From an uncultured Clostridia bacterium (lineage in GTDB: Bacteria; Bacillota; Clostridia; UBA1381; UMGS1253), in NCBI GenBank assembly GCA_934457145.1, contig CAKSHP010000009.1, positions 626 through 64,625 on the forward strand: DNA of 64,000 bases, written 5' to 3'. The notes under the pieces are model-generated. The model had not been told where the DNA came from. It was given only the letters and a program-made list of their open reading frames with translations, and did not search any database. This document shows, piece by piece, positions 29,003 through 45,853 of this stretch; positions within the stretch are counted from its first letter, which is position 1; every line of letters begins with the position of its first letter. The position numbers and the translations under genes were made by a program.

Positions 29003-29040
29003 ATAAAAAAATGTTAAAAAACTTCGGAAAGTGCAGAAAA

Positions 29041-29071
29041 AAGGGGCTGTTTAAAAAATAAACAGCCCCTT
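29041..29071. terminator. Bidirectional terminator between the kinase and the convergent AraC gene
   Basis: AAGGGGCTGTTTA (29041-29053) pairs with TAAACAGCCCCTT (29059-29071). It overlaps the AraC stop codon. Confidence 0.7.
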
Positions 29072-29894: not shown

Positions 29895-30060
29895 AAATTA
29901 TTCCCCCAAAAGCGTCTTTATAGTTTTAATTATACACAACTATAATTAAAAAGTCAATAAAAAAACAATATAAATTATTTAATTATACTAAAAAACAAAC
30001 AAAAATACAGATTTCCATAATTAACTATAAAAATCTGTATTTTGATTTATTTTATCTTAT

Positions 30061-30510
30061 TTATTTCATGTTGTTTGCCTTATCATAAAATCCCGGTAAA
30101 ACGGCTTCAAGCTCTTCTTTTGAAAAGTTTGCAAGCTGCTGCTTAACAGAGGATTTGTTGTTTGAAAGGTAAGCGTTTAAAAGGGAAAATAATTTTTTAT
30201 TAGACGCATCAATAAAATTTTTATCACTGTTTACCAATTCATATTGTTTAACAAGTTCTTCGTTTGAAGCTTTTGCATTTTCATATTCTTTAGTAACGGA
30301 ATCAAGTTTATTTTTTAAATCAACGTTTTCCTGAGTGAGCTGATCTATGCGCTGATTTGAATTTTGAGAAAAACTTTTTAAAACCTGAAGATTTCCGTTT
30401 TCCGGAATAAGCTTCCATTGAGTTATTGTTGTTATGCTTATGAGTGCAATTGCAATTATAAATAATATGCCTGCATAAATCCACATCTGCTTTGTGTTTT
30501 TGTTTTTCAT
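30061..30510 (-). CDS. Membrane-anchored coiled-coil protein, function unknown
   Basis: 149 aa. A single N-terminal TM (WIYAGILFIIAIALISITTI) is followed by heptad-like Q/E/K/L-rich sequence. RBS AAAGGAG lies upstream. Confidence 0.6.
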   Translation of the reverse strand: MKNKNTKQMWIYAGILFIIAIALISITTITQWKLIPENGNLQVLKSFSQNSNQRIDQLTQENVDLKNKLDSVTKEYENAKASNEELVKQYELVNSDKNFIDASNKKLFSLLNAYLSNNKSSVKQQLANFSKEELEAVLPGFYDKANNMK

Positions 30511-30677
30511 ATTAAAATCTCCTTTAAAAAATACAAAATTTTAAAATCATGTAAAACACCTTTAAAATGCGCTGTATTAAAAAAACTGATTAAAACGCAT
30601 AAGTATATCAAAATTTTCTGAAAATTGATTACACGAAGGGCGTTTTTAAGAAAAATACTCAATAATTTTACAAAATA

Positions 30678-31556
30678 TTACAAGTTTAATAAATTTAAAA
30701 CTCTTTCAAAATCATCTTTACCGTAATACTCTATTTCTATTTTCCCCTTTTTATCTTTTGATATTATTTTCACTTTTGTGCCTAATTTTGTTGATAACCT
30801 CGATTGAATTTCTTTAAGCTGCATTTCAATAGCGGTGTCTTTGTTTTCGGTTTTCTTTTCTTTAATATTTTCTTCGCGCAGCTTTTGAGCCATTTTTTCA
30901 GCCTGGCGAACGCTTAACCCGGCAGATACTATTTGATTTGCAAATTCGTCTTGATATTTTTCATCAACTGAAAGAATTGCGCGTGCATGTCCGCCGGAAA
31001 TAAGTCCGTCTGAAATCATTTTTTGAATATTGTCTTTAAGTGAGAGCAAACGCAACGAATTTGCAACCGCACTTCTGCTTTTTCCGACTCTTTGCGAAAC
31101 GGTTTCCTGTGTCAGCGAAAATTCATCTAATAACGATTTATACCCTAAAGCTTCTTCAATCGGATTTAAATCTTCTCTTTGAAGATTTTCAACCAATGCA
31201 ATTTCCATTGACTGCTGTTTTTCATATGAACGAACTATTGCCGGAATTTCTTTAAGCCCGGCAAGCCTTGATGCTCTCCAGCGTCTTTCGCCGGCAATGA
31301 TTTGGTAGTAGCCGTTATCAGCTTCGCTCACTATTATCGGCTGTATAACGCCGCAAGTTTTAATTGAATCAGATAAAACTTTAAGTTTTTCTTCGTCAAA
31401 CACTTTTCTTGGCTGTTCTTTATTTGGTTCTATTAAAGAAATTTTTATATTAACAACAGCATTTTCAGATGTTTTATCTTTTTCCGGATAAAAAACTTTT
31501 GAATCTTCTGTATCAAAAAGAGCTCCAAGTCCTTTTCCGAGTCCTTTTTTAGCCAT
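30678..31556 (-). CDS. parB: Chromosome partitioning protein ParB/Spo0J
   Basis: MAKKGLGKGLGALF N-terminus, ParB box GERRWRA, and HTH LTQETVSQRVGKSRSAVANSLRLL. ATG 31556 has a GGAG RBS. Confidence 0.9.
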   Translation of the reverse strand: MAKKGLGKGLGALFDTEDSKVFYPEKDKTSENAVVNIKISLIEPNKEQPRKVFDEEKLKVLSDSIKTCGVIQPIIVSEADNGYYQIIAGERRWRASRLAGLKEIPAIVRSYEKQQSMEIALVENLQREDLNPIEEALGYKSLLDEFSLTQETVSQRVGKSRSAVANSLRLLSLKDNIQKMISDGLISGGHARAILSVDEKYQDEFANQIVSAGLSVRQAEKMAQKLREENIKEKKTENKDTAIEMQLKEIQSRLSTKLGTKVKIISKDKKGKIEIEYYGKDDFERVLNLLNL

Positions 31557-31701
31557 AATAATCTCCATTCTGCCGTTCTGCGCCGGCATAAACAGTAATT
31601 AAAATTCTCTTATCCGCAGAAAAAATAATAAGAGATTTTTTGATTTTATAAAAATTTATGAGGGTAATTTGATTTTTTACAGGTTAGATTAAATTTTTGC
31701 G

Positions 31702-32472
31702 TTAAATATTTTTATTTTTGCTTATAACTTCATTTGCCAAAGCCAGGTATGCATCGGCGCCTTTTGACGTTATATCGTATGATAAAATTGATTCGCCAAA
31801 GCTTGGAGCTTCGCTTAAACGCACGTTTCTCGGAATTGCCGTTGCGTAAAGCTTGTCCGGAAAATATTTTTTAAGCTCGTCTAAAACCTGTATTGCAAGA
31901 TTTGTTCTTGAGTCATACATTGTTGCCAAAACGCCCTCAAGTGAAAGAGAGGGGTTTATTGTTTTTTTAACTTGTTTTATTGTTCCGGTAAGCTGTGAAA
32001 GTCCTTCAAGTGCATAATATTCACACTGAATTGGAATTAAAACCGAGTCTGCTGCGGAAAATGCATTTAAGGTTATAAGTCCGAGTGACGGAGGACAGTC
32101 GATAATTATATAATCGTAATTGTCTAAAACAGGTTTTAAAGATTTTTTTAATCTTGATTCTCTGTCGGAAATGCCGACTAATTCAATTTCGGCGCCCGCC
32201 AAAGAAATATTTGAAGGCAGACAGTCTAAATTGTTTTGAGTTGTGCTGCAAATTGCATTTTGCACAGGTGCTTCATTTATTATGCAATCATATATTGAAT
32301 ATTTTATATCTTTTCGGTTAATGCCTATTCCGCTTGTGGCATTTCCCTGCGGATCCGCATCTGCAAGAAGCGTTTTTTTCTTTTTATATGCCAATGCTGC
32401 GGACAGATTAACGGAGGTTGTGGTCTTCCCCACTCCGCCTTTTTGGTTTACTACAGCAATTACTTTTGCCAT
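31702..32472 (-). CDS. parA: Chromosome partitioning ATPase ParA/Soj
   Basis: Deviant Walker A NQKGGVGKTTT and IIIDCPPSLG. ATG 32472 is preferred (MAKVIAVVNQKGG). Confidence 0.9.
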   Translation of the reverse strand: MAKVIAVVNQKGGVGKTTTSVNLSAALAYKKKKTLLADADPQGNATSGIGINRKDIKYSIYDCIINEAPVQNAICSTTQNNLDCLPSNISLAGAEIELVGISDRESRLKKSLKPVLDNYDYIIIDCPPSLGLITLNAFSAADSVLIPIQCEYYALEGLSQLTGTIKQVKKTINPSLSLEGVLATMYDSRTNLAIQVLDELKKYFPDKLYATAIPRNVRLSEAPSFGESILSYDITSKGADAYLALANEVISKNKNI

Positions 32473-32634
32473 GTGTAAGCGTCCTTTCATTATTTATTGC
32501 ACTTACTATTTTAGCACATTTATATTAAATAGTAAAGAAAAATTTAAAAAAGTGTTTGAAAACATAAATATAACTGTCAAAAACTAAATATACTTTTTGT
32601 AAACAACAGGCTGTGTAATAAAAAAAACAACAAA

Positions 32635-32650
32635 TGTTTCACGTGAAACA
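32635..32650. promoter_or_regulatory. parS site 1 (perfect TGTTTCACGTGAAACA)
   Basis: This 16-bp palindrome matches the Firmicutes parS consensus tGTTNCACGTGAAACA. It is embedded in a longer palindrome AACAACAAATGTTTCACGTGAAACATTTGTTGTT (32626-32659). Confidence 0.9.
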
Positions 32651-32681
32651 TTTGTTGTTTTTAAATATATGGGGGTAAAAA

Positions 32682-32697
32682 TGTTTCACGTGAAACA
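32682..32697. promoter_or_regulatory. parS site 2 (perfect TGTTTCACGTGAAACA)
   Basis: A second identical 16-mer starts 47 bp after the start of the first. Confidence 0.9.
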
Positions 32698-32705
32698 TTT
32701 TTAAA

Positions 32706-34580
32706 TTAATCAACCAAATCGCAGAGGTTGTTTGAAAATTCAACAGGATCTTCGATATTAAGTCCTTCAATAAGCAATGCACTTGAATAAAGAAGATTTG
32801 TGTATTTTGTTAGCTTATCTTTATCGGTATTGTAAAGAGTTTTTAAAGTGTCGAAAACTTTATGATTAATGTTAATTTCCAAAATTTTCTGAGCGTTTAC
32901 TTTATTATCATTCGGCATTTTATTTAACACTTTTTCCATCTCAACCGATAAATCTCCTTCGCTTGTTATGCAAACGGGATGGTTTTTAAGTCTTGCAGTT
33001 GCTTTAACTGCTGTAATTTTGCCGTCTAACGCTTTTGTCATAAAGTCAAACAAATCTTTATTTTCTTCTTTTGTTTCCTTTTCCTTTTTAGCGTCCTCGT
33101 CGGATTCAAGTCCGGAGTCGCTTGCTGAAACTGATTTAAACTCTTTATCTTTATAGGTGTTTAAAATTTTGAGTGCAAATTCGTCAACGTCTTCGGTCAG
33201 ATACAATATCTCATATCCTTTGTCGCGCGCTGCTTCAACCTGAGGAAGTTTGTCAATCTTGTCTGCGCTGTCACCCGTTGCATAATAGATATATTTTTGC
33301 TCCTCGCTCATGTTCTTGGCATATTCGCTAAGTGTTGTGTACTTCTTTTCTTTTGAAGAAATAAACATTATAAGGTCTTTTAGAACGTCTTTGTCAGCGC
33401 CGTAATTATCATATATGCCGAATTTCAGCTGACGGGCAAAAGCTTTATAAAAAGCTTCATAGTTTTCGCGGTCGTTTTTAAGCATCGATTCCAATTCGTT
33501 TTTGATTTTTTTCTTGATATTTGATGCGATTGCCTTAAGCTGACGGTCGTGCTGAAGAATTTCTCTTGAAATATTAAGCGATAAATCAGCAGAGTCAACC
33601 AAACCTTTAACAAAGCCGAAATAGTCCGGAAGTAAATCTGCACATTTGTCCATAATTAAAACGCCGTTTGAATAAAGCTGCAAGCCTTTTTCGTATTCTT
33701 TTGTATAGTAATCAAAGGGCGGGTGCTTTGGAATAAACATAAGAGCCGTATAGCTTACTATACCGTCGGCGCTTGTGTGAATAACCTTTGCCGGAGTTTC
33801 ATAGTCATAAAATTTGTCGCGGTAAAAATTGTTATAATCCTCGTCTTTAAGTTCGGATTTTGACTTTTTCCATATAGGAATCATGCTGTTAAGAGTTTCA
33901 TCTTCCTGATATTCTTCAAAATCCTCGCTGCCCTCTTTTTTGCGGCTTTTTGTAACAAGCATCTTTATCGGATACTTAATGTAGTCGGAATATTTTTTAA
34001 CAAGCATACGGATTTTGTATTCGTCTAAAAATTCGTCATAATTTTCGTCTTCCGTGTTTTTCTTTATCGAAAGAGTAATCTGTGTGCCGTTTGTGTCATA
34101 ACTGCAAGGCGTTATGTCATATCCCGATGCCCCTTTAGACTGCCACATAAAAGCTTCGTCGCTTCCGAATTTTCGGCTTACTACGCTGACGCAGTCGGCA
34201 ACCATAAATGCCGAATAAAATCCAACACCGAACTGACCTATAATATCGATATCGTCGGAAAGCTCATTCGACTTTTTAAAAGCAAGCGATCCGCTTTTTG
34301 CAATTGTGCCGAGGTTTTCTTCAAGCTCCTTTTCGCTCATTCCGATACCCGTATCGGTAATGGTTAAAAGGCGTTTTTCCTTGTCGGCGCTTATTCTTAT
34401 ATAAAAATTATCGCGGTTAAATTCAATGTTTTCATCCGAAAGCGACATATAGTAGAGTTTATCTATGGCGTCGTTTGCATTTGAAATAAGTTCACGCAAA
34501 AAAATTTCTTTATGCGTATAAATTGAATTAATCATCATATCCAAAAGTCTTTTCGACTCGGATTTAAATTGTTTTGCCAT
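32706..34580 (-). CDS. htpG: Molecular chaperone HtpG (Hsp90)
   Basis: 624 aa. [37 protein letters not shown] and [16 protein letters not shown] are Hsp90 N-domain signatures. Confidence 0.95.
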
Positions 34581-34616
34581 TTATAACATCCTCTTTCTTT
34601 AGTATATACAAAATTA

Positions 34617-34643
34617 TTAGCACTCTCATCTTACGAGTGCTAA
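34617..34643. promoter_or_regulatory. CIRCE operator (HrcA binding site) upstream of htpG
   Basis: TTAGCACTC-N9-GAGTGCTAA is a perfect match to the CIRCE consensus. It lies 37 bp upstream of the htpG ATG and immediately downstream of the -10 element. Confidence 0.85.
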
Positions 34644-34647
34644 TATA

Positions 34648-34675
34648 ATTCTACCATATATTTCGTATTTGTCAA
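34648..34675 (-). promoter_or_regulatory. Candidate sigma-A promoter of htpG
   Basis: On the minus strand: TTGACA (34675-34670), 16-nt spacer, TAGAAT (34653-34648) preceded by TGG. Confidence 0.6.
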
Positions 34676-34812
34676 TATTTTTTTTGTAGTTTTAACTATT
34701 TGTTCATAGTTGAAAATTTTTTGTTACATTGAATATAAAAACGTTGACCGCAAATAATTAAAATGGTACAATATAAAAAAGCATAAAAATAAAAGAAGGT
34801 GTGTAAAAGCTT

Positions 34813-35688
34813 ATGAAAAAAGGAAAAAGAAAAGCGGCAAAGATAATATGCGTGGTTTTTGCGGTTTTGATTGCTGTCGTTTCCGGCGCTGCAATCTGGC
34901 AAAAAGATAACATAAAAGCCTTTATACTGTCAAGAAAATATTCTTCAAAAGAGCTTTTGGCACAGATGTCTGAAAATGATAAACAGTTAAAAGAAGAAAT
35001 AGAAAAATACTTCCCCGAAGGAATAAGAGAATATACGGACGAAGAAAAAGAACAGATTGAATCGGGCGAATTAAGCGAAAAACAGGTTCTTGCAAAAATT
35101 TTGTCGGAAAAGAGCGAAGAGCTTGAAAACAAAGAAAATATGACAGATGAAGAACGCGAAATATATGAAAAAATAGAGCAAATACAAAAGAAAATAAATC
35201 CAAACGTTAAAGTGAGCGTCGACACAAGCGATGTTTTGGTTCCAAAACCCGCAAAAGACGCAAACAGCAGCGGCGAGATAGTTGTTATAGGAAAACCGTC
35301 GCAGACGGGCGCAAATAACTCATCAAAAAGCGACCACTCCCCCACTGCCGAGTCAATAATAAGCAAATATGTTTCGCAGCTTTACGCGCTTGAGGGAAAA
35401 TATATCGGATATATTGAAGGAGTTGTTTCATCGGCAAAGGGCGAAGCAAAATCAAAAGGACTTACCAAAAAGGATACATCCGCACTTTTGAGCATCGGCG
35501 CAAAATACACAAGCAGAATAAATTCGCTTGAGGCTTCATGCGACGGAGAAGTTGAAAACGTTATTTCAAATCTAAAGCGCGAGCTTAATGCAATCGGGGC
35601 AGATACCGGCATAATTTCAACCATACGCTCGGCATATTCAAATGAAAAAAGCCTGAAAAGAGCATATTATATGAATATGATTTACTAA
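34813..35688 (+). CDS. Membrane-anchored protein with E/K-rich coiled-coil region, function unknown
   Basis: 291 aa. N-terminal TM IICVVFAVLIAVVSGAAIW. No recognisable catalytic motif. Confidence 0.6.
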   Translation: MKKGKRKAAKIICVVFAVLIAVVSGAAIWQKDNIKAFILSRKYSSKELLAQMSENDKQLKEEIEKYFPEGIREYTDEEKEQIESGELSEKQVLAKILSEKSEELENKENMTDEEREIYEKIEQIQKKINPNVKVSVDTSDVLVPKPAKDANSSGEIVVIGKPSQTGANNSSKSDHSPTAESIISKYVSQLYALEGKYIGYIEGVVSSAKGEAKSKGLTKKDTSALLSIGAKYTSRINSLEASCDGEVENVISNLKRELNAIGADTGIISTIRSAYSNEKSLKRAYYMNMIY

Positions 35689-35724
35689 ATTTACGGCAAA
35701 AATCAAAAAAATTTGAAAAAAACA

Positions 35725-35753
35725 TTGATAAATACTACAAAATATGATATATT
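35725..35753 (+). promoter_or_regulatory. Candidate promoter of serS
   Basis: TTGATA (35725-35730), 17-nt spacer, TATATT (35748-35753). Confidence 0.55.
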
Positions 35754-35788
35754 ATTCTTTAAAGAAACAATAAGGAGATATAGTTGGT

Positions 35789-37084
35789 ATGTTAGATATT
35801 AAATTTGTTAAAGAAAATCCCGAAATTGTAAAGGAGAATATAAAAAAGAAGTTTAAAGACGAAAAACTTTCGCTGGTTGACGAGGCAATAAAGCTTTACG
35901 ACGCTAAAAAAGAGGCAAACAGCAAAGCCGGCGACCTTCGCGCTAACCGCAATAAATACAGCAAACAGATAGGCGCGTTGATGGGACAGGGCAAGCGCGA
36001 TGAAGCTGAGGAGCTTAAAAAGCTTGTAAATGCCCAGGCAGATGAACTTCGCGAGCTTGAGGCAAAAGAAAACGAGTATGAAACAAAACTTAAAGACGTT
36101 ATGATGAAAATTCCGAACATTGTTGATGCTTCGGTGCCGGTTGGCAGAAACGACGAAGAAAACGTTGAAGTTGAGCAGTTTGGCGAAAAAACAAAAGTTG
36201 ATTTTGAAATTCCTTACCACACCGATATAATGGCAAAGTTTAACGGTATTGATAAAGAAGCGGCAGGCCGCGTTGCGGGTGAAGGTTTTTACTATTTAAT
36301 GGGCGATATTGCAAGACTTCACAGCGCCGTTACGGCATATGCAAGAGACTTTATGATAGATAAAGGCTTTACTTATTGCATACCTCCGTTTATGATAAGA
36401 AGCAACGTTGTTACAGGCGTTATGAGCTTTGAAGAAATGGATGCAATGATGTATAAAATTGAAGGCGAGGATTTGTATCTTATCGGTACGAGCGAACACT
36501 CCATGATCGGTAAATTTATAGACACTATGACTCCCGAGGCAGACCTTCCCTTAACTCTTACAAGCTATTCGCCGTGCTTCAGAAAAGAAAAAGGCGCACA
36601 CGGTATAGAGGAAAGAGGAATATACAGAATACATCAGTTTGAAAAACAGGAAATGATTGTTATATGCAAGCCTGAAGAAAGCATGGACTGGTTTAATAAA
36701 ATGTGGAGCTACAGCGTTGAACTTTTCCGCTCAATGGATATACCGGTAAGAACGCTTGAGTGCTGCACGGGCGACCTTGCAGACCTTAAAGTTAAATCAT
36801 ATGATGTTGAGGCATGGTCGCCGAAACAAGGCAAATATTTTGAAGTTTGCTCGTGCTCTAATCTGGGAGATGCACAGGCAAGACGTTTGGGCATAAAAGT
36901 TAAAGGTGCGGACGGCAGAAAATATCTTGCACACACCTTAAACAACACGGTTGTTGCGCCTCCGAGAATGCTTATTGCGCTTTTGGAAAACAATCTTTGC
37001 TTTGACGGCAAAAAATACAGCGTAAAAATTCCTAAAGCTTTAAGACCGTATATGGGCGGTAAGGAAATTATAGAAGAAAAATAA
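35789..37084 (+). CDS. serS: Seryl-tRNA synthetase
   Basis: 431 aa. N-terminal coiled-coil arm MLDIKFVKENPEIV. Class II motifs are present (FRKEKGAHG, GDLADLK..., LNNTVVAPPR). Confidence 0.95.
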   Translation: MLDIKFVKENPEIVKENIKKKFKDEKLSLVDEAIKLYDAKKEANSKAGDLRANRNKYSKQIGALMGQGKRDEAEELKKLVNAQADELRELEAKENEYETKLKDVMMKIPNIVDASVPVGRNDEENVEVEQFGEKTKVDFEIPYHTDIMAKFNGIDKEAAGRVAGEGFYYLMGDIARLHSAVTAYARDFMIDKGFTYCIPPFMIRSNVVTGVMSFEEMDAMMYKIEGEDLYLIGTSEHSMIGKFIDTMTPEADLPLTLTSYSPCFRKEKGAHGIEERGIYRIHQFEKQEMIVICKPEESMDWFNKMWSYSVELFRSMDIPVRTLECCTGDLADLKVKSYDVEAWSPKQGKYFEVCSCSNLGDAQARRLGIKVKGADGRKYLAHTLNNTVVAPPRMLIALLENNLCFDGKKYSVKIPKALRPYMGGKEIIEEK

Positions 37085-37092
37085 TCTGATAT

Positions 37093-37128
37093 AAAAAATC
37101 GGTGTGAATTTTTTCACACCGATTTTTT
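37093..37128. terminator. Bidirectional terminator after serS
   Basis: AAAAAATCGGTGTGAA pairs with TTCACACCGATTTTTT. Confidence 0.9.
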
Positions 37129-37187
37129 ATATATTTGCATTGTTTTATGCTGTTTTAAGAATTAAAAAGATGTAATCTGTGCGTGTT

Positions 37188-39179
37188 TTATATTATTTTC
37201 ATTATATCGCGCGTAAGGGCAAGCAAATCCGAGCAGTATTGCGATTTTTTGAATTTTGCGATTTGTCCGTTTTCACCGTAAAGCGTTATTGTTTCTTTTT
37301 CAAACTTTAAATAGTTTAGATAATATATAAATCCGCAAACATCTTCTTTTTCAAAGAAATCTTTGATACACGAATATAAAATAAATTCTTTTTCGGAATT
37401 AATATAAAGCTCCGGAAGTGTTTGTGCATTTTTTAATAAAAACATATTCGTAAACATGCAAACATCGGCAAAATCCTTAGGCTTTATCGGAGTTTCAAGC
37501 TTTTGCCACTGTTTTATGTCAAACCTGTAATAAAGCTCGGGGGAGTCTTTAAAAATTTCTTTTATATATCTTCTTTCAGTCAGCGTTTGTTTTGCAACCT
37601 CGCCGTAGTATAAAATGCCGCTTTCGGCTCCGAACAGTGATTTTGACTGATATATTGCAACATATTTAACCGGTAGATTTTCCTTAAAAACATATTTTTG
37701 CGGTATATAGTAAAAATTTTTTGATATATTTATTTCAAATTGCGCCCTTGTTTTCACAACGCCCGTCAAAACGTTTTTCCTTTCAAACATCATGTTGTTT
37801 TTTAACCTGCAAAAAACGTTCTGGTATTTTAAATCGTCGCTGTCGCCTGTTATTTCTTTTAAAAACTTATCAAAATCCGAATCGTAATCGGGCGAAAGCG
37901 CGATTGCGTTTTCAAATTCCGAATGTTTGTCATCAAAATAGAAAAGACTGCATTTTGAAATAATGCGGCGTTTGCTCGTTTTGCCTGTTAAAAGATTCGG
38001 ATATGCGCAAGTTTTAATAATATCCGTTTTATCGGGAGCTTTTTTATAAACGGCGTCAAATGCATAAATGTTTAAAAGCGATGCGCGTTCGTCATTTGTT
38101 TTAACGCTTATGAAAATGCACGGCAAATCAGGTTTCGGATCGTATTTAACCGAAATTGCAAGGTTTGCTTTGGTGTTTACAAATTTTGTTTCGCATGGCT
38201 TTGTTATATCCGCAAAAAACTTTGTTTCATCAAAAGTAAAAATATTTAAACAAACTTTCTGGCAGAGCTTTAAAAGCATATCGTTTATTTTTGCAAAACA
38301 CCAGAATTTATAAAGCATATCGGCATTATCTAACCCGCAAAAATAAAACAGAGATGTGTTTTGAGCTTTGATATCATCTATTAAAGAAAGCGGAGCTGAT
38401 AGAAGCGGTATGTTTTTTAGCATATCGCAAAGACCGGGGTAAAATACTTTTAATTCATTTAAAAGGTTTATGGTCTTTAAAATATTTTGCTTTAAATTTT
38501 TGTTTTTCTCTGTGTTGTATGCATCAATTATTTTATAGCCTTTAAAGGTTCTTTTGGGTGCGGCATTTCTTTTTGAAAACACAGCGGCAAATTTTCGTCT
38601 GCTTTTCGGTTTTAAAAATTTTAACGACTTGTCAGAAACCTTAAAGCTTCGCGGTTTAACGGACGAAATAAGCGTATTTAAGTGATCATATATATAAAAC
38701 GGCGTTTTGTGGTTTTTCACATTATAAAAGCTTAAACCGTCTAATGCGCCGCAATCGTCAAGAAACTTGCGGATTTGCGAGTCTGCATATTTTCCGATAA
38801 AGGAAAGCATGGCGTGCAAATCTTCTTTATATGAATCCATGCCTGCAAACGCTTCAAGTTCGGCATAACCGTAAAGAGAGGAATTTATATATAATTCAAG
38901 CCTGTTAATTCCTGAAAGAAAATTTATCCCGGCGCAGTATATGCCGGAAAAAATTTTTGTAAGAGCCAGCGGATTTCCGTTTAACAAAAGCTCGGTTCTA
39001 TCTTCCGGGCTTTTGTTAAGATAAAGAAAATACTTTCCGCTTTGGTATAGCGCATAATTTTTTTCGCATTTAAAATTTTCGCTCAGGCTGATATTTCCCG
39101 CGCTTTCAGGTCGGTTTTCGTTTTCGCAAAATATGCATATGCTGACCGTGCCGGAAGTTATGTTTAAAACTTCTGTCAA
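37188..39179 (-). CDS. Orphan large protein with DUF2357/McrC-like N-terminus, degenerate PD-(D/E)xK (DUF524-like) core and a PUA-like C-terminal module. This assignment is a hypothesis.
   Basis: Start is placed at TTG 39179 (AAGGAGG at 39194-39188, 8-nt spacer) because the track start at 39236 lies inside the metQ terminator stem. Motifs: MLYKFWCFAKI, PDLPCIFISV...(18 aa)...FDAVYKK, and VKYVAIYQS...GILYYGEV...YYRFDIKQWQKLETPI. Confidence 0.7.
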   Translation of the reverse strand: MTEVLNITSGTVSICIFCENENRPESAGNISLSENFKCEKNYALYQSGKYFLYLNKSPEDRTELLLNGNPLALTKIFSGIYCAGINFLSGINRLELYINSSLYGYAELEAFAGMDSYKEDLHAMLSFIGKYADSQIRKFLDDCGALDGLSFYNVKNHKTPFYIYDHLNTLISSVKPRSFKVSDKSLKFLKPKSRRKFAAVFSKRNAAPKRTFKGYKIIDAYNTEKNKNLKQNILKTINLLNELKVFYPGLCDMLKNIPLLSAPLSLIDDIKAQNTSLFYFCGLDNADMLYKFWCFAKINDMLLKLCQKVCLNIFTFDETKFFADITKPCETKFVNTKANLAISVKYDPKPDLPCIFISVKTNDERASLLNIYAFDAVYKKAPDKTDIIKTCAYPNLLTGKTSKRRIISKCSLFYFDDKHSEFENAIALSPDYDSDFDKFLKEITGDSDDLKYQNVFCRLKNNMMFERKNVLTGVVKTRAQFEINISKNFYYIPQKYVFKENLPVKYVAIYQSKSLFGAESGILYYGEVAKQTLTERRYIKEIFKDSPELYYRFDIKQWQKLETPIKPKDFADVCMFTNMFLLKNAQTLPELYINSEKEFILYSCIKDFFEKEDVCGFIYYLNYLKFEKETITLYGENGQIAKFKKSQYCSDLLALTRDIMKII

Positions 39180-39195
39180 AAAAGCCGCCTCCTTA

Positions 39196-39243
39196 CTAAA
39201 AATATAATAAAGGGCGCGCAGCAAAATATGCCGCACACCCTTT
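39196..39243 (-). terminator. Rho-independent terminator of metNIQ
   Basis: On the minus strand, AAAGGGUGUGCGGC (39243-39230) pairs over 14 bp, including 3 G-U pairs, with GCUGCGCGCCCUUU (39222-39209). AUUAUAUUUUU follows. Confidence 0.75.
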
Positions 39244-39254
39244 TAAGGATTTAA

Positions 39255-40073
39255 TTAAAATATTGCAACAACAGCGCCTTCATATTTGTCTTCTATGAAT
39301 TTGCGGATTTCTTCTGTTTGCAAAGCTTTTAATAAAGCTTTGGTTTTTTCGCTGTTTTCGTTGCCTTCTTTAACCGCAACTATGTTTGCATAGCGTTTTG
39401 CGGCTTCGGAGTTTGCGTCTTCTGTTGCAAGAGCCTGCGAAACCTTAAGTCCGCCGCCTATAGCATAGTTACCGTTGATAACTGCCATGTCAACGTCTGC
39501 CAAAGCGCGAACAAGCTGCGCTGCTTCAATTTCTTCAATAACAAGGTTTTTCGGATTTTCCGCAATATCAAGAACGGTTGCCGTGAATCCAATGCCCTCG
39601 CGGAGCTTTATAAGATCTAAAGACTCTAAAAGGAAGAGCGCTCTTGCTTCGTTTGTTCCGTCGTTGGGGATAGCAATTTTAGCTCCGTCTGCCAAAGCGT
39701 CTAAAGAGTTTGTTTTTCCGGCATACAAACCGAACGGCTCATAGTGAATTGCGCCTGCGGAAACAAGATGTGTGTTGTTGTTTTTGTTAAAGTCTTCAAG
39801 ATAGGGCAAGTGCTGGAAGTAGTTTGCATCAAGCTCGCCGCTTTCGGTTGCCGTGTTGGGAAGAACATAATCGTTATACTCAACAACTTCGAGAGTGTAG
39901 CCTTCTTTTGCAAGTGCGTCTTTTGCAGCTGCCAAAATTTCAGCATGCGGAGTTACGCTTGCGCCGACTTTGATAACCTTTTCTTTTGAAGCGCTGTTTT
40001 TGCCGCAGCCTGTAAATGAGAAAATCATAACTATTCCCAATACAACTGCCAATACCTTTGATAATTTTTTCAT
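39255..40073 (-). CDS. metQ: Methionine ABC transporter substrate-binding lipoprotein (NlpA/MetQ family)
   Basis: Lipobox FSFTGC. The NlpA-family pattern reads IKVGASVTPHAEIL...LDANYFQHLPYL... Confidence 0.9.
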   Translation of the reverse strand: MKKLSKVLAVVLGIVMIFSFTGCGKNSASKEKVIKVGASVTPHAEILAAAKDALAKEGYTLEVVEYNDYVLPNTATESGELDANYFQHLPYLEDFNKNNNTHLVSAGAIHYEPFGLYAGKTNSLDALADGAKIAIPNDGTNEARALFLLESLDLIKLREGIGFTATVLDIAENPKNLVIEEIEAAQLVRALADVDMAVINGNYAIGGGLKVSQALATEDANSEAAKRYANIVAVKEGNENSEKTKALLKALQTEEIRKFIEDKYEGAVVAIF

Positions 40074-40090
40074 TTTAAAACATCTCCTTT

Positions 40091-40750
40091 TTATTTTATT
40101 CGTTTGTCGGACAGTTTGGCAAGCGCCATGCCCAACTCCTGAAATATTTGAACAATGACTACCAGCAAAAGCACCGTAATCATCATTACATCATTTTGAT
40201 AACGGTAATAACCGTAGTTAATGCCTATTGCGCCCAAACCGCCGCCGCCTACAAAGCCTGCCATTGCAGAGTAACCCAAAATGGTTGTAATGGCAATTGC
40301 AGCGCCCGTTATAAGAGAGGGCGTTGCCTCGGGAATAAGCACTTTATAAATAATCTGAAATGCATTAGAGCCCATCGACTCCGCAGCTTCTATAACGCCT
40401 AAGTCAACCTCTTTTAAAGATGATTCAACCATTCTTGCAACAAACGGTGCCGACGCTATAACAAGCGGAACAATTGTTGCCGTTGAGCCTATGGTTGTGC
40501 CGATAAGCCAGCGCGTGAACGGAAGTATCGCAACGAGCAAGATGATAAACGGAACCGAGCGCAAAAGATTTATTATAACGCCCAAAACAGTGTTTATTAT
40601 TTTGTTTCTGCAAATTCCGTCTTTGTCCGTTATATATAATATAATGCCCAAAGGAAGACCGAAAACATATGCCAAAGCTGTTGAAACGATAACCATATAC
40701 AGCGTTTCCAAAACGCCGTTTATAAGCAAATCAATTATTGATTGTGTCAT
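40091..40750 (-). CDS. metI: Methionine ABC transporter permease
   Basis: 219 aa, 5 TM. The EAA-like loop reads VDLGVIEAAESMGSNAFQIIYKVLIPEA. Confidence 0.9.
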   Translation of the reverse strand: MTQSIIDLLINGVLETLYMVIVSTALAYVFGLPLGIILYITDKDGICRNKIINTVLGVIINLLRSVPFIILLVAILPFTRWLIGTTIGSTATIVPLVIASAPFVARMVESSLKEVDLGVIEAAESMGSNAFQIIYKVLIPEATPSLITGAAIAITTILGYSAMAGFVGGGGLGAIGINYGYYRYQNDVMMITVLLLVVIVQIFQELGMALAKLSDKRIK

Positions 40751-41744
40751 CTTTTCTTTCCTCCTCTTTGTAGATTAAATTTTTGTTTTTTAAATATTCG
40801 AGCACCCTTTTTGAATCCTCCTCGCTTTCGGGCAGCTGCAAAACCATTTGTCCGTAAGCTATGCCGTCTATAGTTTGAGTGTTTGCCGCCAAAATATTTA
40901 CCGCCGCGTGACATTCAAACGCAAGGTTTGAAATTGTCGGCTCAAAGGCGGAGGCGCCGTCGAAAACAATTCTTATGCACTTTTTGCCCGCCATGCGCTC
41001 TATTGCCTCGGTTTTCGGCAAGATAAGCTCTTTTGCAATCTGCGATTTCGGACGCATAAAAATTTCTTTAACGCTTCCCTGTTCAACAATGTGGCTTTTG
41101 TCTATAACGGCAACCTTGTTGCATATCTGCTCAATAACTTTCATTTCATGAGTTATAACAACAATTGTAACGTTCATTTTTTTGTTGATATCTTTTAAAA
41201 GCTGCAAAATCGAGCGTGTCGTGTTAGGATCAAGCGCGCTTGTTGCCTCGTCGCAAAGCAAAACCTTCGGATTTGTTGCAAGCGCCCTTGCAATGGCAAC
41301 TCTTTGTTTTTGTCCGCCGGAAAGCTGAGCCGGATACGAATTTGCTTTATCCGAAAGTCCGACAAGCTCTAAAAGCTCTTTTGCTCTTTTTTTTGCTTCG
41401 TGCGACGGTACTTTTGCAATTTCAAGCGGATAACATATGTTTTTTAAAACGGTTCTCTGCGCTAAAAGGTTAAAGCCCTGAAAAATCATTGACATAGACT
41501 GTCTTGTTTTTAAAAGCTCTTTTTTTGAAAGCTTTGAAAGGTCTTTGCCGTCAAAAACAACCGTTCCGCCGGTCGGAATTTCAAGATAGTTTATACAGCG
41601 TACAAGCGTGCTCTTGCCGGCGCCCGACAAACCGATTATCCCGAAAATATCGCCCTTTTCGATGTCTAAATTGATATCTTTGATTGCTTCAACGCTGTTT
41701 TCGCCGCTTCCGTAAACCTTTGTGAGGTTTTGTAGTTTAATCAA
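40731..41744 (-). CDS. metN: Methionine ABC transporter ATP-binding protein with C-terminal NIL domain
   Basis: Walker A GLSGAGKST, signature LSGGQKQR, Walker B LLCDEATSALD. TTG start with a GGGGAG RBS. A 20-bp overlap with metI supports operon structure. Confidence 0.9.
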   Translation of the reverse strand: MIKLQNLTKVYGSGENSVEAIKDINLDIEKGDIFGIIGLSGAGKSTLVRCINYLEIPTGGTVVFDGKDLSKLSKKELLKTRQSMSMIFQGFNLLAQRTVLKNICYPLEIAKVPSHEAKKRAKELLELVGLSDKANSYPAQLSGGQKQRVAIARALATNPKVLLCDEATSALDPNTTRSILQLLKDINKKMNVTIVVITHEMKVIEQICNKVAVIDKSHIVEQGSVKEIFMRPKSQIAKELILPKTEAIERMAGKKCIRIVFDGASAFEPTISNLAFECHAAVNILAANTQTIDGIAYGQMVLQLPESEEDSKRVLEYLKNKNLIYKEEERKDDTINN

Positions 41745-41779
41745 AGTTTGTTCACTCCCCCAAATATAGTTGCCGTATA

Positions 41780-41810
41780 ATAAAAACGGCAGGATATCTG
41801 CGCTCCTGCC
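41780..41810 (-). terminator. Leader terminator (attenuator) between the leader ORF and metN
   Basis: On the minus strand: GGCAGGA (41810-41804), loop GCGCAGAUA, UCCUGCC (41794-41788), then GUUUUUAUUAU. It lies 44 nt upstream of the metN TTG. Confidence 0.7.
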
Positions 41811-41849
41811 AAAATAATATTCATCAAAATTATTAAAAAGATGAAATAA

Positions 41850-41936
41850 TTATATGATAGAACGCGCTGCAAAAAGATATGTATCCATGCACATATCCAT
41901 AAAACACATACCACATGTCATACAAAGCTTTTTCAT
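41850..41936 (-). CDS. 28-codon Met/Cys-rich leader ORF (MKKLCMTCGMCFMDMCMDTYLFAARSII)
   Basis: Not in the ORF track because it is under 60 aa. ATG is at 41936. AAGGAGG lies 8 nt upstream. Ten of 28 codons are AUG or UGY. Stop is TAA at 41852-41850. Confidence 0.55.
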   Translation of the reverse strand: MKKLCMTCGMCFMDMCMDTYLFAARSII

Positions 41937-41984
41937 ATTCAGCGCCTCCTTTTTTAAATACTACTAATTCACTATGTTTAGTTT

Positions 41985-42013
41985 ATTATAGCACCGGGAC
42001 GCCTGTATGTCAA
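41985..42013 (-). promoter_or_regulatory. Consensus sigma-A promoter of the met leader/metNIQ operon
   Basis: On the minus strand: TTGACA (42013-42008), 17-nt spacer, TATAAT (41990-41985). Both hexamers match the consensus perfectly. Confidence 0.7.
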
Positions 42014-42094
42014 CAAAAAATTAGCTTCTAATTCTGTTTTTTGCAGATAACTTAAAAAGTTATCTGCAAATATGTTTTAAATGCATAAAATTTA

Positions 42095-43855
42095 TTATTT
42101 AAGTCTGTCTGCCATAGTGTAAAATTTAGCATATATTCCGTTTTCGCGCATCAAAAAATCATGAGTGCCGCTTTCGGCAATGCCGTCGCAGGTTAAAACC
42201 AAAATTCTGTCGGAATTTTTTATGCTTGAAAGACGGTGCGCAATGGTGATGGTTGTGCGCCCCTGTGCAAGAGCGTTTAAAGATTTTGCAACTTCAAACT
42301 CGCTTTCGTTGTCAAGAGCGCTCGTTGCTTCGTCTAAAATGATAATCGGCGGATTTTTTAAAAATATGCGCGCGATGCTTATGCGTTGTTTCTGTCCGCC
42401 GGAGAGCTTTACGCCTCTTTCGCCGACATAGGTGTTATATCCGTCTTTTAGCTTTGATATAAACTCATCTGCGCCGGCGCGGCGTGCCGCTTCTTTCACT
42501 TCTTCAAAAGAAGAACCCGGTTTTCCGTAAGAAATATTTTCAAAAACCGTTCCGGAAAATAAATAAACGTCCTGCTGAACCATGCCGATGTTTCGGCGAA
42601 GGCTTTTTAGCGTAAATTCTTTAATATCGTGACCGTCGATAAAAATGGTTCCTCCGGTGGTGTCGTAAAAACGGGGAATAAGGTTGCAAAGGGTTGTTTT
42701 TCCGCCACCCGACGGACCGACTATTGCCACTTTTTCGCCGGGGCTGACGCTAAGATTTAAGTTTTTAAACACCGTATTGTGATCGTCGGGATATTCAAAG
42801 GAAACATTTTTAAAAACGATATTTCCCTTTGGCGATACCATCTCTTTTGCGTCCGGCGAATCAAAAATTTCAATATCGGAGTCTATTATTTGCAAAAACC
42901 TTTCTATTCCCGTCATACCGCGCTGAAATTGCTCGGTAAACTCTATTATTTTGCGGATTGTGGTAATCAGCGTTGAAACATACATAACATATGCAACCAT
43001 ATCACCCGGCAAAATACTGCCGTTTACCAGAAATATTCCGCCGCCGATAATTACGGCTAAATACATAAGTCCGTCAAACACGCGCGTTGAGGTTTGAAAA
43101 AGCCCCATTATTTTATAGGTGTGCTGTTTGATGTCGAAAAAATTTTGGTTTCCTTTTTCAAACTTATTAATTTCCAAGTCCTCGTTTGCAAAAGCTCTAA
43201 CAACCTTTTGCCCGAGAAGAGTATCTTCAATATCCGCGTTAAGCTCGCCTATCTGATAGCGCTGTTTTGCAAAGGCGCTGCGCATTTTTTTATTTATTTT
43301 TTTGCATACAATAAACATAACCGGAACAAATATAAATATCATCAGCGTTAAAAGAAAGTTTATGTTTGCAAGTATTATAAACGAAAAAACTATCTTAACC
43401 CCGGCGATAAAAATTTCCTCCGGGCAATGGTGGGCAAACTCTGTTATGTCAAATAAATCGTTTGTTATGCGCCCCATTATCTGCCCTACTTTTGTGTTGT
43501 TAAAATATGAATCGGACAGCTTCTGAAGATGCGCATAAGCATCGCGGCGCATATCCGTTTCGATTTTTGTGCCCATGATATGACCCGTGCTTGCCATGTA
43601 GTAGTTTGCGAAGCTGTCGATAATTCTTAAAACAAAATATAAAAAACCGAGCGACAAAACGGTTTGCATGGTTAAAAGAGCCGTGTCTTTTAAGGCGGTG
43701 TTTGTTATGTAGCGAATTATCATCGGCAGCACTATTTCACACACCGTTGTCAGCGACGCGCAAAATAAATCTGCAATCAATGTTTTTACATACGGTTTAA
43801 AATACGGAGAAAACCGCATTATCAGTTCTTTGTTTGAATAGCTTTTGTTTTCCAT
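42095..43855 (-). CDS. ABC transporter, fused permease/ATPase (MsbA/multidrug-exporter type)
   Basis: 586 aa. Six N-terminal TM segments, Walker A GPSGGGKTT, signature LSGGQKQR, Walker B IIILDEATSALD. Confidence 0.85.
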   Translation of the reverse strand: MENKSYSNKELIMRFSPYFKPYVKTLIADLFCASLTTVCEIVLPMIIRYITNTALKDTALLTMQTVLSLGFLYFVLRIIDSFANYYMASTGHIMGTKIETDMRRDAYAHLQKLSDSYFNNTKVGQIMGRITNDLFDITEFAHHCPEEIFIAGVKIVFSFIILANINFLLTLMIFIFVPVMFIVCKKINKKMRSAFAKQRYQIGELNADIEDTLLGQKVVRAFANEDLEINKFEKGNQNFFDIKQHTYKIMGLFQTSTRVFDGLMYLAVIIGGGIFLVNGSILPGDMVAYVMYVSTLITTIRKIIEFTEQFQRGMTGIERFLQIIDSDIEIFDSPDAKEMVSPKGNIVFKNVSFEYPDDHNTVFKNLNLSVSPGEKVAIVGPSGGGKTTLCNLIPRFYDTTGGTIFIDGHDIKEFTLKSLRRNIGMVQQDVYLFSGTVFENISYGKPGSSFEEVKEAARRAGADEFISKLKDGYNTYVGERGVKLSGGQKQRISIARIFLKNPPIIILDEATSALDNESEFEVAKSLNALAQGRTTITIAHRLSSIKNSDRILVLTCDGIAESGTHDFLMRENGIYAKFYTMADRLK

Positions 43856-44120
43856 TTTTTATCCTCTTTAAATAATAATCAAAAACATTTTATCACAATC
43901 AAAAGCGTTTTTCAACAAAAATTATTGCAAAGCGGCAAAATGAACGAAAAAAAACGTCTTACGGGAAAATTTTAATTATTATTTATTAAATAGGAAGAAA
44001 AAGAAAAAAATAAAAAAAATAAAAAATTTTTTTATTTTAATGCAACTTTTCGGGCTTTTAAAATGTATTATAAGTGAAAAGGGTAAAACACCTAAAAAAA
44101 TTCATAAAAGGAAAAGAGGA

Positions 44121-45686
44121 ATGAAAATGAAAAAAATTATTTCAATTGCTTTAACGGCAGCAATGGTATTTTCATCAATGGTATTTACTGCTTTTGCAGA
44201 AGATGAAGAAAACGGCGTTGTACCGATTTCGGCGCCTGTGGATTCTTCAAAACCTGTACCGATTTCAGCTCCGGTGGATTCTTCGGAAGCACCCGTGCAG
44301 AATATAGAAAAGGTTACATATAACGGCACTGTTGAAGAAGCCGGCGAAGGTTATATCACATTAAAGGAAGAAAAAATTCAGCTTAACTATGATGAAAGCA
44401 CTCTTGTTTGCGACTACGACTTTATGCCTTATGAGAGCATAAAGGCAGGCGACAGCGTAACGGTTGTTGCAGACACAGTTACAACAATGAGCATACCGGC
44501 TCAGTCTTATGCATACTACATTTTGGTTAACACCAAAAATTCTTCGGCAGCGCCGATATATGCAAAGGTTTTGTCAAATGACGGCAAAGAGATAATGTCT
44601 GCGGATAATCAGAACAAAATTATTATCTCAGACGAAACTCCCACATCTCACTACAGAGCAAAAATAAAAATAATGGCAAAAGATATTCCCGCGGGTTCTG
44701 AAATATTTGCATTTGCGACAACCGTAGGTCTTAGCATGCCGGCATATGTGCCCGCAGAGAAAATTGTTGTAATAAACATGGGAGAAGAAGCAAAAGAGCC
44801 TTCAGAAGGCGCAGAAAATATAACAATTTCAAAACCTGCTGATACCGACAGCGTTACATATAACGGCACTGTTGAAGAAGCCGGCGAAGGTTATATCACA
44901 TTAAAGGAAGAAAAAATTCAGCTTAACTATGATGAAAGCACTCTTGTTTGCGACTACGACTTTATGCCTTATGAGAGCATAAAGGCAGGCGACAGCGTAA
45001 CGGTTGTTGCAGACACGGTTACAACAATGAGCATACCGGCTCAGTCTTATGCATACTACATTTTGGTTAATACCAAAAATTCTTCGGCAGCGCCGATATA
45101 TGCAAAGGTTTTGTCAAATGACGGCAAAGAGATAATGTCTGCAGATAATCAGAACAAAATTATTATCTCAGACGATACCCCCACAGCTCATTACAGAGCA
45201 AAAATAAAAATAATGGCAAAAGATATTCCCGCGGGTTCTGAAATATTTGCTTTTGCAGAAACTGTAGGTCTTAGTATTCCGGCATATGTTGCACCCGAGA
45301 AAATCACGGTTGTAAACCTTGCCCAGGATACGGCTGCGGCAGATGTTGAAAAAATTATTGTTGACGATAAAACATATGAGGTATCGTTTAACTTTGAAAA
45401 AAAAGAAGAATTCGGCGAAAACCCAACTGCAAGATTTGCGTTAAGGCCGGTTTGCGAAGCTTTGGGCTATGATGTTTCCTGGGTTGGCGAAACGCAGAGC
45501 ATCGTTCTTTCAAAAGGCGGAAAAGACGTAAGCTTGGATATTGGCGTTGCAGTGCAGAAAATCGGCCACACACCGATGATTATTGACGGCAAAACATATG
45601 TTACACTTTCTTTGTTTAAAGTTTTATACGGAGATGAGGCAGAAGTTTCACTTAAAGACAACGCAGTAGTTGTTACAACAAAGTAA
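44121..45686 (+). CDS. Secreted protein with an internally duplicated 180-aa unit and a C-terminal Cu-amine-oxidase-N-like domain
   Basis: ATG 44121 is preferred (AAGAGGA RBS; signal peptide MKMKKIISIALTAAMVFSSMVFTAFA). The C-terminus RFALRPVCEALGYDVSWVGETQSIVL...IIDGKTYVTLSLF is stalk-like. Confidence 0.8.
   Translation: MKMKKIISIALTAAMVFSSMVFTAFAEDEENGVVPISAPVDSSKPVPISAPVDSSEAPVQNIEKVTYNGTVEEAGEGYITLKEEKIQLNYDESTLVCDYDFMPYESIKAGDSVTVVADTVTTMSIPAQSYAYYILVNTKNSSAAPIYAKVLSNDGKEIMSADNQNKIIISDETPTSHYRAKIKIMAKDIPAGSEIFAFATTVGLSMPAYVPAEKIVVINMGEEAKEPSEGAENITISKPADTDSVTYNGTVEEAGEGYITLKEEKIQLNYDESTLVCDYDFMPYESIKAGDSVTVVADTVTTMSIPAQSYAYYILVNTKNSSAAPIYAKVLSNDGKEIMSADNQNKIIISDDTPTAHYRAKIKIMAKDIPAGSEIFAFAETVGLSIPAYVAPEKITVVNLAQDTAAADVEKIIVDDKTYEVSFNFEKKEEFGENPTARFALRPVCEALGYDVSWVGETQSIVLSKGGKDVSLDIGVAVQKIGHTPMIIDGKTYVTLSLFKVLYGDEAEVSLKDNAVVVTTK
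44313..44780 (+). repeat. Intragenic tandem repeat, unit 1
   Basis: The offset to unit 2 is exactly 540 bp. Only 3 substitutions were seen by eye in the first roughly 330 bp, and divergence rises toward the 3' end. Confidence 0.9.
44853..45320 (+). repeat. Intragenic tandem repeat, unit 2
   Basis: See unit 1. Both encode VTYNGTVEEAGEGYITLKEEKIQLNYDESTLVCDYDFMPYESIKAGDSVTVVADTVTTMSIPAQSYAYYILVNTKNSSAAPIYAKVLSNDGKEIMSADNQNKIIISD... Confidence 0.9.
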
Positions 45687-45748: not shown

Positions 45749-45853
45749 ATGCATAACGGCAAAATATATCTCATATATATTACAAAGGAAAGTTTTAAAA
45801 ATCTTAAGGTCTGCCAAAAAGCTTTATTACGGCGGACGGAAAGGCGAATATGT

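Follow-up and report, generated by a model that had tools for sequence, protein, structure and literature searches.

An McrC-like protein with a degenerate nuclease motif and a predicted PUA-like domain, encoded apart from any McrB-like gene in an uncultured Clostridia bacterium

Results

This work concerns one gene in a 64,000-nucleotide stretch of DNA (hereafter the window) from an uncultured Clostridia bacterium (contig CAKSHP010000009.1, positions 626 to 64,625). The gene, referred to as the target, encodes a protein of 663 amino acids (aa) that appears to derive from the McrC family and to have been kept, probably for a different use, in the absence of an McrB-like partner gene. A first-pass annotation made from the sequence alone had assigned this 663-aa protein the span 37188-39236. 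There is indeed an open reading frame (ORF) over that span on the minus strand, but it amounts to 682 aa when counted from its first GTG, whereas the 663-aa form, as given by the ORF list and its translation, begins with a TTG codon at 39179 (Table 1). The GTG start was dismissed since it lacks a ribosome-binding site (RBS) and since the TTG start is used in all gene calls. Identical 663-aa boundaries have been picked by gene callers in at least 10 metagenome or metagenome-assembled genome (MAG) copies; the window protein recurs unchanged as P0259, and metagenomes yield another nine variants of 663 aa.

As had been proposed, the gene is located between the metNIQ operon and serS. The metN, metI, and metQ genes (41744-39255; metQ, 39255-40073) lie upstream on the same strand, and serS (35789-37084) converges on the target from the other side (Pfam assignments for the flanks were made on orthologous neighbours). 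Between the metQ stop codon and the target RBS, immediately 5' of the latter, sits a terminator-like hairpin whose RNA fold has a centroid energy of -26.7 kcal/mol (z = -3.8 versus shuffles), and a promoter scan of the interval between this hairpin and the target start found no sigma-70-like site. In these respects, the earlier description (a terminator, then an RBS, and no evident promoter) was accurate. Neither a riboswitch nor any other RNA was found in an Rfam search of positions 34500-44200. The GC content of the target (0.344) and the GC content at its third codon positions (GC3, 0.352) are inside the range of the neighbouring genes. The upstream operon has a sigma-70-type promoter of its own in front of metN (42013-41985, minus strand, within the region 41745-42013), with a perfect 12/12 match and an extended -10 element; its leader of about 240 nt had no Rfam match at gathering thresholds, neither to a SAM riboswitch nor to a T-box.

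Table 1. Position and basis of the features assigned to the target gene and its borders
Feature	Coordinates	Strand	Basis
Coding sequence, 663-aa protein	37188..39179	-	Stop codon 37188-37190; boundaries recur in P0001/P0259 and eight other 663-aa variants
Shine-Dalgarno sequence AAGGAGG	39188..39194	-	8 nt before the TTG start; read directly in the sequence
Terminator-like hairpin after metQ	39209..39243	-	Terminator scan; 15 pairs, 8 of them G-C, then a T-rich tail
Bidirectional terminator-like hairpin	37089..37132	both (.)	Terminator scan; common to the target and convergent serS
N-terminal Ig-like beta-sandwich, residues 1-111	38847..39179	-	AlphaFold2 (AF2) model, predicted local distance difference test (pLDDT) ~85-92; Foldseek beta-sandwich/Ig-like matches
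Degenerate, shortened helical DUF2357 remnant, residues 117-281	38337..38831	-	hhalign versus the long family
PDDEXK_7-type PD-(D/E)xK fold with substituted catalytic positions, residues 282-445	37845..38336	-	Sub-cut-off Pfam match and relatives
Predicted PUA-like (YTH/EVE-like) beta-barrel, residues 465-610	37350..37787	-	AF2 and Foldseek
Small tail subdomain, four strands and a helix, residues 611-663	37191..37349	-	AF2 secondary structure

In the full-length AlphaFold model (663 aa; mean pLDDT, 72.7), five regions can be distinguished. All peptides quoted in the first-pass annotation are present in the 663-aa protein: MLYKFWCFAKI at residues 288-298, PDLPCIFISV at 349-358, FDAVYKK at 374-380, VKYVAIYQS at 504-512, GILYYGEV at 521-528, and YYRFDIKQWQKLETPI at 550-565. 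The spacing of 18 residues given between the second and third of these is wrong, the actual distance being 15. The N-terminal region is beta-rich as stated, but it forms an Ig-like sandwich ahead of the helical DUF2357 part; it aligns with the N terminus of DUF2357 proteins. DUF2357 is the helical domain with which McrC binds McrB. Its remnant in the target is poorly predicted (pLDDT below 50 at residues 144-222 and 241-281), while the following PD-(D/E)xK region is modelled with moderate confidence as an alpha/beta core (residues 286-443). Confidence is very high for residues 465-610. The tail subdomain accompanies the PUA-like domain in most of its stand-alone and fused homologues.

On the target itself, Pfam reports PDDEXK_7 only, and below threshold (E = 0.015; 15.8 bits versus a cut-off of 22.1; residues 289-351, profile positions 2-68). 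Of the other families that the first-pass annotation had suggested checking, DUF2357, EVE, and ASCH gave no match on it, DUF2357 was not matched on its relative P0002 either, and PADLOC and NCBIfam searches with the target gave no match. A word-indexed search of 5.8 billion proteins did retrieve four homologues of the target. Among these, P0002 (641 aa, 45% identical to the target) exceeds the PDDEXK_7 cut-off with 34.6 bits, and we accept the homology of the sub-threshold target to PDDEXK_7 because this orthologue passes. P0003 and P0004 (825 and 834 aa) carry DUF2357 (229-240 bits) and PDDEXK_7 (159-173 bits), followed by the C-terminal region of the target. When the N-terminal 250 residues of the subfamily were compared with the long DUF2357 family by hhalign, the match had a probability of 97.8% (E = 7.9e-13) but stopped at about position 309 of 391, covering roughly the first three quarters, so that the last 60-80 DUF2357 residues are missing. 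Pairwise alignment with P0003 and P0004 in addition revealed a 50-residue internal deletion in the DUF2357 region. From about residue 282 onward, HMMER alignments to the long relatives run unbroken into the C-terminal domain. Foldseek with the full-length model returned generic beta-sandwich and YTH matches only and no McrC, which we attribute to the low confidence of the middle region of the model; searches of the Protein Data Bank (PDB) sequences with family-profile hidden Markov models found no McrC, EVE, or YTH chain. Taken together, the comparisons show that the target descends from the McrC family of the DUF2357 plus PDDEXK_7 type, as the first-pass annotation had suspected.

The nuclease motif of the target has degenerated further than the earlier reading implied. 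In the long family, the signature is LYEYWCF ... (Q/K)PD-NVLSL ... FDAKYR ... DDINTMHRYRD, as against LYKFWCF ... KPDLPC-IFISV ... FDAVYKK ... TDIIKTCAYPN in the target. The replacement of the catalytic Lys by Val had been noticed and is confirmed (FDAKY to FDAVY; V377), but the helix Glu has also been lost (LYEYW to LYKFW; K291), the column of the canonical PD Asp is occupied by C354, with a PD three residues upstream, and HRYRD has become CAYPN. D375 is the sole canonical catalytic residue left, three of the four canonical positions being substituted. In the long family, D-x-K is kept in about 20 of 45 aligned sequences. Across six members of the subfamily of the target, the same columns read DAV, DAK, EPV, ESI, IPL, and VPI, and the helix Glu is absent from all six. 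Judging from these substitutions, the target protein is expected to be catalytically inactive.

The first-pass annotation had also remarked on the missing partner gene and had suggested examining the neighbourhoods of homologues. The sequence upstream could be read for six of the long relatives (about 800-840 aa), namely, L002, L013, L025, L027, L028, and L031, and in all six an McrB-like AAA_5 GTPase gene lies there, overlapping or abutting the start of the McrC-like gene. The target belongs to a clade of shorter proteins from uncultured Clostridia (580-725 aa), comprising P0001/window, P0002, P0005, P0007, P0008, P0013, and the proteins of loci L005 and L007, and none of five independent contexts of this short clade (window/L004, L001, L005, L006, and L007) contains an McrB-like gene; the surroundings of the clade's genes are conserved and not of a defence kind. 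The orphan state noted for the window thus extends to four other lineages. Within the 64-kb window, a phmmer search with an McrB-like query (E <= 10) and a Walker-A scan revealed no McrB-like ORF; the P-loop proteins are RecF, DnaA, MetN, and the ABC exporter, with no extra one, and DNA-methyltransferase motifs are absent from all ORFs. When the PUA-like domain was placed in a neighbour-joining tree, seven subfamily sequences formed one bipartition in 38 of 40 bootstraps, which suggests that the McrB-less form arose once.

Among the long relatives, one locus from a Synergistaceae MAG (L013, 4213-11479) shows a complete cassette, consisting of two 5-methylcytosine (m5C) methyltransferases, a 254-aa protein, an McrB-like protein, an McrC-like protein, and a 281-aa protein. 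The McrB-like protein is a bare GTPase of 381 aa (PADLOC PDC-M26A) and the McrC-like protein, of 807 aa, combines DUF2357, PDDEXK_7, and the PUA-like domain. This cassette is likely a model of the ancestral system. DUF2357 proteins on plasmids (including H1 and H2) occur in methyltransferase/AAA/DUF2357 cassettes without a PUA-like tail, and a tblastn search of plasmids with P0003 found DUF2357 proteins, none with the C-terminal domain, and did not recover LlaJI.R2. The first-pass annotation had placed the target with modification-dependent (type IV) restriction or defence proteins. McrBC-type ancestry is upheld, but the nuclease motif of the target is degenerate. Because the visible contexts of the relatives (L013, H1, and H2) include methyltransferases as in the restriction-modification (R-M) systems LlaJI and PcaI, the label "type IV" is too narrow for the parent family.

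Conservation of gene order places the target among old residents of the chromosome. At locus L001, the orthologue occupies the slot orf548/ABC exporter/orthologue/convergent serS, in the same order as in the window but with metNIQ absent; identities between the two loci are 82% for the ABC exporter, 94% for SerS, and 45% for the target. The whole metNIQ operon (window, 39255-41744) is missing at L001 2500-2583, an operon-sized indel right beside the target gene. A third locus, L006, encodes a 580-aa orthologue (35% identity over 360 residues; about 29-35%), and the genes that follow it immediately are sipL-like and AraC-like, with 59 and 52% identity to the window genes at 45749-47413 and 48133-50310, respectively. 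Because synteny with L001 and L006 is combined with neighbour-like GC and GC3, we regard the target as an old resident and not as a recent island. A recent horizontal insertion was dismissed on the same grounds.

Selection on the gene is strong over the PUA-like domain, its best conserved region, and relaxed elsewhere. Compared with P0002 of L001, the ratio of nonsynonymous to synonymous substitution rates (dN/dS) is about 0.40 for residues 1-280, about 0.37 for residues 281-460, and about 0.07 for residues 461-610, the last value equalling that of the ABC exporter; these figures are rough, dS versus L001 being saturated (above 1.8). Within the species (window versus L004), all 10 replacements fall in residues 179-460. 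Among the ten 663-aa variants, 57 of 460 N-terminal positions are variable versus 8 of 203 C-terminal positions (Fisher p = 6e-4), and in the PUA-like domain only 4 of 150 positions vary among strains. These comparisons demonstrate long-term retention of the gene with strong constraint on its C-terminal domain.

The C-terminal module is far more widespread than the rest of the protein. When 1.84 billion cluster representatives were scanned exhaustively with HMMER, 400 hits were obtained at E <= 1e-3, most of which span only residues ~460-650. An AF2 model of residues 455-663, built with 50 homologues, is of high confidence (pLDDT, 94.6; predicted template modelling score, 0.88). Among its best 50 Foldseek matches in the PDB are AF2351 (E = 4e-3; probability, 1.0), about 45 YTH-domain chains (YTHDF2/3, YTHDC1/2, and Mmi1), and the EVE protein PH1033, with probabilities of 0.8-1.0, E-values from 4e-3 to 0.14, and template modelling (TM) scores, relative to the matched chain, of 0.35-0.53; matches in BFVD include ASCH- and DUF3850-type phage proteins. 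The domain is thus predicted to be a PUA-like beta-barrel of the YTH/EVE-like kind. This agrees with the PUA-like tail proposed in the first-pass annotation, the PDB fold matches being almost exclusively YTH and EVE, while the modelling and fold search that it had suggested gave no useful match for the nuclease middle. A Pfam scan of the target domain and 51 homologues gave no consistent family and no model over the region, only marginal signals for LON_substr_bdg (three members; E = 0.04) and for EVE on P0004 (E = 0.035), and a PDB sequence search with the domain had no match. Four aromatic residues (Y490, Y510, Y550, and W558) are invariant in the domain.

The module also occurs outside McrC-like proteins. 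It is found by itself, in 220- to 270-aa proteins, some of which have a transmembrane helix at the N terminus; at the C terminus of membrane proteins of the YitT family (PF02588, in many cases together with PF19700; ~405-415 aa) from Oscillospiraceae/Eubacteriales MAGs (L008, L009, L010, L012, and L029; P0026, P0165, P0168, P0183, and others); and on an XRE-type helix-turn-helix (HTH) protein (P0231). The neighbourhoods of three stand-alone or 349-aa homologues have no common theme.

Discussion

We consider it reasonably probable that the target is an McrC-family derivative retained for a different use, which works without McrB, no longer cuts DNA, and has the reader module as its working part. 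It looks like a co-opted defence protein, not a new kind of system. The comparisons themselves show that an ancestor of a small clade of uncultured Clostridia lost the McrB-like GTPase partner, that the McrB-docking part of DUF2357 was shortened, and that the catalytic residues of the PD-(D/E)xK fold were substituted, after which the gene was inherited vertically in a non-defence chromosomal neighbourhood with selection keeping the C-terminal PUA-like domain and the small tail. As to function, the protein may act as a non-cleaving binding protein whose PUA-like barrel would bind nucleic acid or possibly a nucleotide, probably via a flipped-out base, modified or unmodified. The beta-sandwich and the dead nuclease fold might then serve as a scaffold, either for oligomerisation or for non-specific contacts with nucleic acid. 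For its expression, the gene would probably rely on transcripts that run past the metQ terminator or on a promoter off the sigma-70 consensus. The first-pass annotation had left three outcomes side by side, a decaying defence gene, a nuclease-dead DNA-binding protein, and a stand-alone system of unknown type; we favour the second, as a retained binding protein, and a simple decaying gene less.

Several points weigh against this interpretation. The gene is preceded by a terminator and no promoter for it was found in the scanned interval. Its N-terminal two-thirds evolve fast, with a gene-wide dN/dS within the species of 0.45 versus 0.07 for metQ. Furthermore, an allele with TAG at codon 391 is present on gut metagenome contigs (L023/L024 1871-1873, corresponding to window 38007-38009), in place of TGC in the window and TAT in L004; the result is two ORFs, one of 390 aa and a separate one of 201 aa for the tail, and the full-length protein may therefore be dispensable, although the allele derives from one assembly at ~2.6x coverage, where a sequencing error is possible. 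The PUA-like assignment rests on predicted structure with modest E-values (4e-3 at best) and TM scores of 0.35-0.53, and no sequence profile ties the domain to EVE or YTH. Finally, the clade-conserved acidic residue at position 350, together with D375 and K379, leaves a small chance of residual metal binding or catalysis.

The first three of these points would equally be expected of a relic. The main rival explanation holds that the target has no function left and is decaying into a pseudogene, as the remnant of an McrBC/LlaJI-like restriction system that was lost, and the missing partner, the substituted catalytic residues, the truncated DUF2357, and the relaxed constraint over residues 1-460 fit it as well. 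We nevertheless regard it as rather unlikely. An unselected ORF of 2 kb would not be expected to stay open until synonymous sites are saturated (dS above 1.8 versus L001), and the ORF persists in lineages in which neighbouring genes are just 52-59% identical. Purifying selection on the C-terminal part is as strong as that on the ABC exporter, and seven clusters of the short clade (P0001, P0002, P0005, P0007, P0008, P0013, and L005) are all intact at 580-725 aa. Even in the N-terminal region, conservation can still be recognised when the short family is set against the long one. The retention of a non-cleaving binding protein remains our preferred explanation.

A bolder form of this explanation, which at present strikes us as doubtful, takes the module to be the founding example of an undescribed PUA-like family and a portable sensor of modified bases or nucleotides. 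The orphan would then be a bacterial "epigenetic reader" of restriction-system origin that became fixed in the clade's core genome, its ligand being DNA or RNA methylation or a modified mononucleotide. The module is shared by ~400 clusters at 50% identity, with McrC-type, YitT-type, XRE HTH, and stand-alone carriers. The membrane and HTH fusions hint at a sensor role beyond restriction systems, and it is possible that they leave room for a small-molecule ligand. A recent precedent is a PUA domain that is reported to sense m6-dAMP (bioRxiv 10.64898/2026.01.15.699771).

Conceivably, the protein could instead be an active stand-alone nuclease of the MspJI type, in which the PUA-like reader and the PD-(D/E)xK fold together would cut marked DNA with relocated residues D350, D375, and K379. 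Migration of catalytic residues is known in the PD-(D/E)xK superfamily. D375 is kept, an acidic residue is present three positions before the canonical PD Asp in 6/6 clade members, the basic residue after the DxK strand (K379) lies on the same strand face as D375, and MspJI appears as a weak fold match (probability, 0.38). Against this, the helix Glu is lost clade-wide and the Lys in 5/6 members, P0008, P0013, and L005 have lost even the acidic residue of DxK, the region evolves fast with low to moderate model confidence, and PADLOC recognised nothing, all of which makes an active nuclease improbable in our view. A split system, in which the gene for the McrB-like GTPase, and perhaps one for a methyltransferase, would lie in another part of the genome, of which only 64 kb is visible, is more improbable still in spite of the partly kept DUF2357, given that the two genes overlap or abut in all six long relatives, that the McrB-like gene is absent in five short-clade contexts, that the DUF2357 region is ~100 residues shorter and poorly conserved, and that a dead nuclease would give a GTPase complex nothing to deliver.

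LlaJI and PcaI are among the closest known systems. LlaJI.R2 and PcaIB are McrC-family subunits with DUF2357 and PDDEXK_7 (DUF524) in methyltransferase-linked McrBC-like R-M systems (PMC1459862, PMC8989522); the DNA that PcaI restricts is unmethylated, and both ends of its DUF2357 subunit carry extensions that are unexplained (PMC8989522). The target shares with them the order of a beta-rich N terminus, a putative helical DUF2357 part, a PD-(D/E)xK core, and a C-terminal extension, and homology to this type can be demonstrated by HMMER and hhalign. Unlike them, it has neither an McrB-like GTPase nor a methyltransferase nearby, its DUF2357 is shortened and three of four catalytic positions are substituted, and it is chromosomal and syntenic, not on a mobile element. 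We do not file it as a functional McrC because three of the four features that define one are lacking, namely, a PDDEXK_7 score above the cut-off, intact catalytic residues, and an adjacent McrB-like GTPase.

A nuclease-dead McrC derivative is not without precedent. The CnuC/McrC homologues of type II/III CoCoNuT systems have an inactivated PD-(D/E)xK fold, which has been proposed to persist because it binds or serves as a scaffold (Bell et al. 2024, PMC11090510). Like CnuC, the target is McrC derived, with an N-terminal Ig-like beta-sandwich and a nuclease fold without its catalytic residues. CnuC, however, shares its operons with genes for CnuB/McrB GTPases and for effectors, HEPN or other, none of which is found at the target, and its coiled-coils and zinc ribbons are absent from the target protein.

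The reader-type domain likewise has parallels. A YTH-like N-terminal domain is known from McrB of Thermococcus gammatolerans, as are EVE-McrB fusions (Bell et al. 2020, PMC7641849). In McrBC-type systems, specificity is conferred by YTH/EVE-like domains acting as modules, fusions of McrC homologues to EVE-superfamily domains occur, and YTH-like domains on PD-(D/E)xK nucleases have already been described (PMC7641849, PMC11090510). The likeness lies in the predicted fold of residues 465-610 and in the attachment of the domain to McrBC-type machinery in the long relatives. In contrast to these readers, the domain has no significant profile similarity to Pfam EVE, YTH, or any PDB chain, it resides at the C terminus of the McrC-like subunit instead of on McrB, and it carries an extra 50-residue tail and occurs also on its own and on YitT-type and XRE HTH proteins. 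The MspJI family resembles the target in combining a reader-type fold and a PD-(D/E)xK fold in a single polypeptide without an NTPase partner, but it differs in the reversed domain order, in its intact catalytic motif, and in showing a weak fold match without sequence-level homology. An McrC derivative with a dead nuclease and no McrB, fixed in a chromosomal neighbourhood that is itself conserved, appears to be undescribed in the literature, and so does the Pfam-less PUA-like family to which the tail of the target belongs.

Recruitment of defence parts is common, yet documented stepwise cases are few. Here, intact McrB-linked and dead McrB-less forms can be compared directly, and the selection data single out the reader module as the part that is kept, making the target a clean case, open to testing, of a defence protein that has been kept to serve another purpose. 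Should the module bind a specific modified base or nucleotide, the target would be a rare stand-alone bacterial reader, and the family of stand-alone, YitT, and HTH proteins would represent a new sensor domain that merits description. Otherwise, the gene would be an ordinary relic of a restriction system in the genome of a gut Clostridia bacterium.

Additional observations

A replication-origin-type cluster with gyrB, a RecF-like P-loop ORF, a DnaA-like ORF, parB, and parA occupies positions 18459-34580, ~13-19 kb from the target, with htpG and serS adjacent. The nearness of the target to this cluster is probably coincidental, but it is of note for a putative methyl-base reader.

Further upstream of the target, a 548-aa predicted surface protein (44040-45686; orf548) has a C-terminal Cu_amine_oxidN1-like domain and an internal, near-perfect duplication of ~190 aa, two BLAST segments of which match the same L001 fragment. 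Elsewhere in the window, an exact tandem direct repeat of 2,616 bp (10538-13153 and 13262-15877; 0 mismatches; offset, 2,724) contains in each copy a complete ORF for a GH36 alpha-galactosidase (melibiase), at 10846-13041 and 13570-15765; this repeat may have arisen by duplication very recently, or it may be an artefact of the assembly.

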